Origin: Escherichia coli
GTDB lineage: Bacteria > Pseudomonadota > Gammaproteobacteria > Enterobacterales > Enterobacteriaceae
DNA length: 1,140 nucleotides
Direction: 5' to 3' (one strand)
Assembly (NCBI RefSeq): GCF_003334315.1
Contig: NZ_QOWR01000122.1
The notes below the pieces were generated by a model. The model ran no database searches. It was not told the DNA's origin and worked only from the letters and a program-made list of their open reading frames with translations. The stretch's first letter is position 1. Each line of letters begins with the position of its first letter. Position numbers and translations under genes: made by a program. Below, piece after piece: positions 292-1,140 of this stretch.

Positions 292-1140
292 ATGGCACTG
301 ACTGACGCAAAAATCCGGGCTGCAAAGCCCACTGACAAGGCTTATAAACTCACTGACGGGGCCGGCATGTTCCTGCTGGTTCATCCTAATGGTTCCCGTT
401 ACTGGCGTCTCCGTTATCGTATTCTGGGTAAGGAGAAAACCCTGGCACTTGGTGTGTATCCGGAAGTTTCTCTCTCCGAAGCTCGTACAAAACGGGATGA
501 GGCCCGAAAACTGATTTCGGAGGGGGTTGACCCTTGCGAACAGAAAAGAGCTAAAAAAGTAGTCCCTGATTTACAACTCTCTTTTGAACATATTGCACGA
601 CGCTGGCATGCCAGTAATAAACAATGGGCACAATCACACAGCGATAAAGTACTCAAAAGCCTCGAGACACACGTTTTCCCCTTTATCGGCAACCGGGATA
701 TCACAACACTCAGTACCCCGGACCTGCTTATCCCTGTTCGTGCTGCAGAAGCTAAACAAATTTATGAAATCGCCAGTCGTCTGCAGCAAAGGATATCCGC
801 TGTAATGCGTTATGCCGTACAGTCTGGCATCATCAGATATAATCCTGCTCTGGATATGGCTGGCGCATTGACCACGGTAAAACGCCAGCATCGCCCCGCT
901 CTTGACCTTTCACGCCTGCCTGAACTTCTGTCGCGTATTGGCAGTTATAAGGGGCAGTCTGTCACCCGGCTTGCCGTTATGTTGAATCTGCTGGTGTTTA
1001 TTCGCTCCAGTGAACTCAGATATGCCCGCTGGTCAGAAATTGATATTGACAATGCCATGTGGACTATTCCAGCCGAACGCGAACCTCTGCCTGGCGTAAA
1101 ATTCTCACACCGGGGCTCCAAGATGCGAACACCACATCTT
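292..1140 (+). CDS. int: Tyrosine-type site-specific integrase, P4-like family (N-terminal 283 aa; 3' end beyond the window)
   Basis: Open frame from ATG 292 to the window end with no stop (283 codons). My translation begins MALTDAKIRAAKPTDKAYKLTDGAGMFLLVHPNGSRYWRLRYRILGKEKTLALGVYPEVSLSEARTKRDEARKLISEGVDP, which matches the conserved N-terminal arm-DNA-binding domain (DUF4102 type) of P4-like integrases. It later reads LLVFIRSSELRYARWSEIDIDNAMWTIPAER..KMRTPHL, which fits tyrosine-recombinase box I. Position directly downstream of and co-oriented with a tRNA is typical for this family. Family membership is from recognition, not a database search. The supplied ORF track omits this frame, presumably because it has no stop inside the window. 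Confidence 0.93.
   Translation, partial: MALTDAKIRAAKPTDKAYKLTDGAGMFLLVHPNGSRYWRLRYRILGKEKTLALGVYPEVSLSEARTKRDEARKLISEGVDPCEQKRAKKVVPDLQLSFEHIARRWHASNKQWAQSHSDKVLKSLETHVFPFIGNRDITTLSTPDLLIPVRAAEAKQIYEIASRLQQRISAVMRYAVQSGIIRYNPALDMAGALTTVKRQHRPALDLSRLPELLSRIGSYKGQSVTRLAVMLNLLVFIRSSELRYARWSEIDIDNAMWTIPAEREPLPGVKFSHRGSKMRTPHL

Follow-up and report, generated by a model that had tools for sequence, protein, structure and literature searches.

The locus examined here raises the question of whether an integrase gene at the head of an Escherichia coli genomic island is still intact, and whether the enzyme and its attachment sites could still move the island. The window, i.e. the whole stretch of 1,140 nucleotides that was analysed, had been described from its letters alone as carrying an uninterrupted integrase frame of 283 codons, a good ribosome-binding site and, at codon 238, a candidate box I catalytic arginine. 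The original prediction suggested that the element may still be competent for excision or integration, and proposed that the 3' continuation be checked for an intact C-terminus including the catalytic tyrosine and that the protein be compared with phage integrase and DUF4102 profiles. On the evidence collated below, the window very probably comprises the attL of an island in tRNA-Phe together with the first two thirds of an intact P4-family integrase gene, the product of which is a heterobivalent recombinase.

The coding part of the window and its translation signal were located as follows:

292–1140, + strand: integrase open reading frame, codons 1–283 of 420, running off the end of the window.
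280–283, + strand: Shine–Dalgarno-like AAGG of moderate strength, 8 nt 5' of the ATG, read from the sequence.

Translation of the window gave a frame free of stop codons from the ATG at 292 to position 1140 (283 codons), as had been claimed. The chance of finding 283 open codons in a random frame is (61/64)^283, or about 1e-6, by our own arithmetic; the longest open reading frame in the other frames of the window amounts to 96 amino acids. An in-frame TGA (286–288) is located immediately 5' of the ATG at 292, which is therefore the sole possible start. The ribosome-binding site described as good is indeed present, but with AAGG at a distance of 8 nt from the ATG its strength is merely moderate; an AGGA-type motif is found at the equivalent place in the relatives from Providencia, Salmonella and Serratia. 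When the window was scanned for sigma-70 promoters, none passed, including upstream of int.

The continuation beyond position 1140 was taken from other genomes. Megablast of the window against 5,426 complete E. coli genomes returned 100% matches over all 1140 nt in three of them (ZF34, ZF31 and HCP30S3_I2), of which ZF34 and HCP30S3_I2 were examined in detail. In both, the open reading frame reaches 420 amino acids and encodes one and the same protein (WP_063078140.1). It extends for 137 codons beyond the window end with no stop and no frameshift, these last codons having been read from genomes with an identical window and not in the window itself. The count agrees with the 120–140 further codons that had been estimated, and the C-terminus is intact in both genomes. 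The tRNA-Phe gene is in both cases pheU, located downstream of dicD, between dicD and the integrase gene. A gene copy with a coverage of at least 80% was present in 3296 of the 5426 complete genomes, and any match at all in 3510; in some genomes of the species the copy is truncated (matches at 69% and 24% coverage).

Within the window, the following protein domains were delimited:

298–555, + strand: arm-type DNA-binding domain, residues 3–88 (Pfam, 9.6e-30 with the window part alone).
583–867, + strand: core-binding domain Phage_int_M, residues 98–192 (Pfam, 1.3e-27 with the window part alone).
922–1140, + strand: first part of the catalytic domain Phage_integrase, residues 211–283 of 211–383.

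With the full protein, Pfam returned Arm-DNA-bind_3 (PF13356, formerly DUF4102; residues 3–88, 2e-29), Phage_int_M (residues 98–192, 2.8e-27) and Phage_integrase (PF00589; residues 211–383, 8.3e-17); with the window part alone, the Phage_integrase match was marginal (E 0.095). The profile search proposed earlier thus assigned the protein to the integrase family. The arm domain matched PDB entry 3ju0, the HAI7 integrase (phmmer E 1.5e-31), as well as 3jtz and 3rmp, and the core-binding domain matched 2kkv (1.3e-31); the catalytic domain alone gave only chance matches when searched with phmmer against the PDB. An AlphaFold2 model of the integrase had a mean pLDDT of 94.7. Its best PDB matches in Foldseek were full-length lambda Int, Tn1549 Int and the HAI7 and HPI arm-binding domains, and a probability of 1.00 was obtained against lambda Int, Tn1549 Int, XerD and Cre. 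The integrase family is very large: at E ≤ 1e-3 it counts 48,319 representative clusters. A DUF4102 arm-binding domain assigns an integrase to the IntSXT subgroup, whose P4 cluster inserts downstream of tRNA genes (PMC8138268). Judged by these matches, the protein is a predicted heterobivalent tyrosine recombinase of three domains, and it is to be classed as P4-like (IntSXT subgroup, P4 cluster), not with the lambda group.

Two residues of the active site are encoded within the window:

1003–1005, + strand: catalytic arginine I of box I, R238, aligned with R212 of lambda Int.
1120–1122, + strand: catalytic lysine K277 of the beta2–beta3 hairpin, aligned with K235 of lambda Int.

Codon 238 reads CGC (Arg) and lies within FIRSSELRYARW / FIRSSELRYARWSEIDID; BLASTP alone already aligned R238 with R212 of lambda Int. 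A shallow profile of 10 sequences reached 12% for lambda Int in hhalign and barely touched the structures of catalytic domains. This profile was too weak, so one of 69 sequences was needed, made up of 50%-identity representatives that are 35–60% identical to the query. Aligned with lambda Int by hhalign (probability 97.3%, E 2.6e-11), the larger profile paired R238, K277, H341, R344 and H368 with lambda R212, K235, H308, R311 and H333, respectively. The nucleophile candidate Y378 follows H368 by 10 residues, whereas in lambda Int Y342 follows H333 by 9. R238, K277, R344 and Y378 were invariant in 69 of the 69 relatives, H341 was kept in 67 and H368 in 68, and the query departs from the consensus (at least 80%) at only four positions, all of them conservative (M/L, V/I).

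The assignment of codon 238 to the box I arginine was accordingly upheld by both alignments and by its invariance. The remaining catalytic residues had been placed outside of the window; this is correct for H341, R344, H368 and Y378, which were read from the window-identical genomes, but not for K277, which lies inside. With the catalytic tyrosine present, the full set of active-site residues of a tyrosine recombinase is found in this protein. A 12-residue insertion (residues 264–275, window 1081–1116, EPLPGVKFSHRG) directly precedes K277; P4 Int has it too, but IntA (CP4-57) and most of the 69 representatives do not.

Upstream of the integrase gene, the window contains a tRNA gene and the elements associated with it:

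19–94, + strand: intact tRNA-Phe (GAA) including the CCA end (ARAGORN; Rfam tRNA, 68.3 bits).
72–94, + strand: attL copy of the att core, TTCGATTCCGAGTCCGGGCACCA, made up of the 23 nt that end the tRNA; a second copy occurs at the opposite end of the island.
104–134, + strand: intrinsic terminator of the tRNA, a hairpin (104–129) followed by a T run (terminator scan).

The tRNA was the sole match in an Rfam scan of the window, and 197 nt separate it from the integrase start; the leader that follows the terminator accounts for about 160 nt of these. The second copy of the core, attR, was located in the ZF34 locus at 31631–31652, about 11.5 kb downstream, with one G missing. Past attR, ZF34 agrees base for base with the pheU–yjdQ–cadC region of K-12, which therefore represents the empty site, with yjdQ only. 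From the attR copy and the comparison with this empty site, the ZF34 island measures about 11.5 kb; it was inserted at pheU ahead of yjdQ, which in K-12 is a pseudogene and an older remnant of a related integrase. For GI-pheV, a 23-bp attL/attR repeat has been described (PMC11537424). With the core, the terminator and the three arm-type repeats described below, the window very probably holds a complete attL, the left junction of a genomic island in the 3' end of tRNA-Phe.

The helix of the terminator has a ten-pair consensus with 3 compensatory pairs among E. coli, Providencia, Salmonella and Serratia, and as the terminator is located beyond the att core, on the side of the island, tRNA-Phe receives it from the island. 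On the 3' side of attR (ZF34 31631–32030; K-12 NC_000913.3 4362191–4362626), a decayed copy of the leader and the yjdQ integrase remnant were observed, from which it follows that pheU has been struck by related islands at least twice. The direct repeat that results (about 165 bp, 93% identity) could allow loss of the island by the action of RecA. In a 3.2-kb contig from Providencia (GCA_043119525.1, 1210–1510), the integrase and leader are accompanied by a partial tRNA 3' end (TTCTGAGTCCGGGCACCA) and no tRNA gene; this junction could represent a secondary integration site or the junction of tandem islands.

Between the terminator and the integrase start, three putative binding sites for the arm-type domain were found:

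217–228, + strand: putative arm-type Int-binding repeat 1, GTGTGGGTATAA, of the pattern TGNGGGTAYA.
229–240, + strand: putative arm-type Int-binding repeat 2, TTGCGGGTATAC, directly adjoining repeat 1 as a tandem copy.
256–267, − strand: inverted arm-type repeat, reverse complement AGAGGGTACAAA, a match with one mismatch.

Repeat 1 aligns with an annotated arm repeat of the P4 attP, TTGGGGGCATAA, and repeats 1 and 2 form a tandem with a 12-nt register, as do the P4 repeats at 3942–3965. The inverted repeat is spaced 15 nt from repeat 2, is conserved in four genera and aligns with the inverted repeat of P4. In the 41-kb ZF34 locus, TGNGGGTAYA has 4 exact matches (0.35 expected), all of them at the two island ends; the second tandem pair lies at 31555–31578, about 52 nt inward of the attR core. 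The arm repeats are conserved across E. coli, Providencia, Salmonella, Serratia and P4, whereas the spacer between terminator and repeats diverges.

A perfect TATAAT (224–229) occurs inside arm repeat 1, with a weak −35 element (cccACA) at a spacing of 18 nt. In the relatives this position reads TACAAT, TATAAA or TACAAA; as TATAAT is not kept across the genera, it was assigned to the arm consensus rather than counted as a demonstrated promoter. If it were the int promoter, binding of Int would repress int. Control regions of int that overlap the arm sites of attL are known, for example for IntS of KplE1 (PMC2951348); for P4 Int, the same source cites Piazzolla et al. 2006. Because no promoter passed the scan of the window, autoregulation of int in the present case is something that we only infer.

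The closest well-described counterpart is intP4 of GI-pheV in EC958, which is the sole gene conserved in all GI-pheV islands (PMC11537424). It is 97% identical to the query integrase in amino acids and 93% in nucleotides, is likewise located directly 3' of tRNA-Phe and uses the same 23-bp att repeat. The two proteins differ at eleven amino acids, none of them catalytic or highly conserved, and in location: intP4 of EC958 is found at pheV, and the query allele, in the exact matches, at pheU. The ratio dN/dS between the two alleles was 0.05 (71 synonymous and 14 non-synonymous differences), which indicates strong purifying selection on the integrase gene. Their identity varies along the locus, from 96–100% over the first ~800 nt of the window to 84–93% in the 3' part of the gene, with dS values of 0.14 for codons 1–283 and 0.81 for codons 284–420. 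This unevenness suggests that the int alleles are recombinant mosaics, i.e. that recombination between integrase alleles has taken place.

P4 Int shares 55% identity over 410 amino acids (E 9e-175) and all three domains with the island integrase. The attachment sites correspond as well: the number and order of the arm repeats and their 15-nt spacing are the same in the P4 attP and in the island att, and the common layout consists of a tandem arm pair, about 53–61 nt, the core in a tRNA 3' end, about 112–122 nt, a second tandem arm pair, 15 nt and an inverted arm site next to int. The target of P4 is the tRNA-Leu gene leuX, and that of the island integrase is tRNA-Phe. The two systems differ further in the arm consensus (GGGTAYA in the island, GGGGCAY in P4), in the position of the inverted arm site, which ends 24 nt before the ATG in the island but overlaps the ATG in P4, and in that P4 possesses the Vis excisionase whereas the ZF34 island is without a detectable one.

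Compared with the model, the arm domains of the HAI7 integrase from Pectobacterium (3ju0; 64% identical in the Foldseek alignment) and of the HPI integrase from Yersinia (56% identical in the Foldseek alignment) both gave an rmsd of 0.7–0.8 Å; for these integrases (3ju0, 3jtz, 3rmp) the N-terminal domains alone have been solved. The HPI targets tRNA-Asn. Lambda Int shares the heterobivalent architecture of three domains and the catalytic residues at an identity of only about 16–18%, and relative to it the DUF4102-type arm-binding domain has an extra strand and helix (PMC8138268).

The remainder of the island was inspected in the same two genomes. In ZF34 it contains a doc/phd toxin–antitoxin pair, IS1, gene fragments and a yee-type module (GTPase, DUF932, antirestriction, JAB/RadC-like, YeeU/CbtA and DUF4942). 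In HCP30S3_I2 (locus 15740–29140), the identical integrase heads an island that has been heavily rearranged by multiple copies of IS1, and chromosomal pieces (glgS, yqiJ and the yqiH fimbrial genes) have been moved beside the integrase. Searches of the ZF34 locus by tblastn with P4 Vis, K-12 AlpA and lambda Xis gave no match better than E 0.14, and none better than E 1.4 inside the island, a level at which a very divergent RDF could escape detection. A complete excision module, i.e. integrase and RDF on one island, was thus not found in ZF34. The suggestion that the element may be competent therefore stands in part: the enzyme and both sets of att arms look intact, but the ZF34 island is without an excisionase and its attR core carries a deletion of 1 nt. 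Efficient excision of this island without help in trans is doubtful.

Three other explanations were weighed against an intact P4-family integrase gene at an island junction. The gene might be a pseudogene in the source of the window, broken just past position 1140; the truncated copies in some E. coli genomes (69% and 24% coverage) and the retention of only the remnant yjdQ in K-12 give this idea some footing. It is nevertheless very unlikely, as the window-identical genomes that were examined encode the complete 420-residue frame and as 3296 of the 3510 matching genomes cover at least 80% of the gene. That the protein is instead a housekeeping or other tyrosine recombinase, such as a Xer dimer resolvase, an integron integrase or an invertase, has practically negligible probability and was rejected on domain architecture and context. 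The catalytic fold is common to XerD, XerA, IntI and Cre, but simple recombinases lack an N-terminal arm-binding domain; moreover, identity to P4 Int amounts to 55%, and the gene directly adjoins that of a tRNA and is accompanied by attL/attR repeats as well as arm sites.

The third explanation accepts the gene as intact and questions the island: the integrase would be an orphan on an immobile, decaying island, and it may have been kept by its action in trans on other pheU or pheV islands or may have arrived recently. P4-family integrases, for their part, are capable of low-rate excision, or of excision aided by RDFs that co-resident elements supply, which speaks against such stranding, as do the intact state of both arm-site sets and the dN/dS of 0.05 of a protein under selection. 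In its favour are the lack of an RDF homologue in the ZF34 island, the 1-nt deletion in the attR core and the cargo of truncated genes and IS1 copies, rearranged in HCP30S3_I2. Cross-talk of integrases between E. coli islands, namely the PAIs of strain 536, and the role of RDFs have also been reviewed (PMC7545054). Taken together, a stranded island is a possibility to be taken seriously, although it is held with less than even confidence.

The coincidence of selection and allele recombination with decaying, excisionase-free islands raises the further idea that the integrase has a role beyond the mobility of its own island, which is considered unlikely. One possibility would be a trans-acting recombinase for other pheU or pheV islands; another would be a regulator bound at attL, where the arm sites are found in the stretch from the tRNA terminator to the int start.

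Under the preferred reading, an intact P4-family integrase gene at the attL of a tRNA-Phe island, the N-terminal domain would bind the GGGTAYA arm repeats at 217–240 and 256–267 plus the tandem pair at the other end of the island, and the central and C-terminal domains would bind the 23-bp core in the tRNA 3' end. R238, K277, H341, R344 and H368, together with the nucleophile Y378, would then cut and rejoin the strands by way of a Holliday-junction intermediate, in the manner of lambda Int and P4 Int. The integrase is probably functional, as far as can be judged from sequence, and as an active enzyme it would be able to integrate the circular form of the island into pheU or pheV. For the ZF34 island to be excised, either Int would have to suffice by itself, or an excisionase would have to be provided in trans, or RecA would have to act on the direct repeats of roughly 165 bp.

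In E. coli and in phage P4, this gene family is already well described, both as to where it is located and as to how it works. The additions made here are the presence of K277 within the window, a P4-style attL with its arm sites, the covariation in the terminator, the mosaic alleles and the excisionase-free island of ZF34; they refine the annotation and leave the current picture unchanged. The locus marks the boundary of an island at pheU, the integration machinery of which (enzyme, core and arm sites) looks intact, and the results may be of use for annotation and for judging whether such an island could still move.
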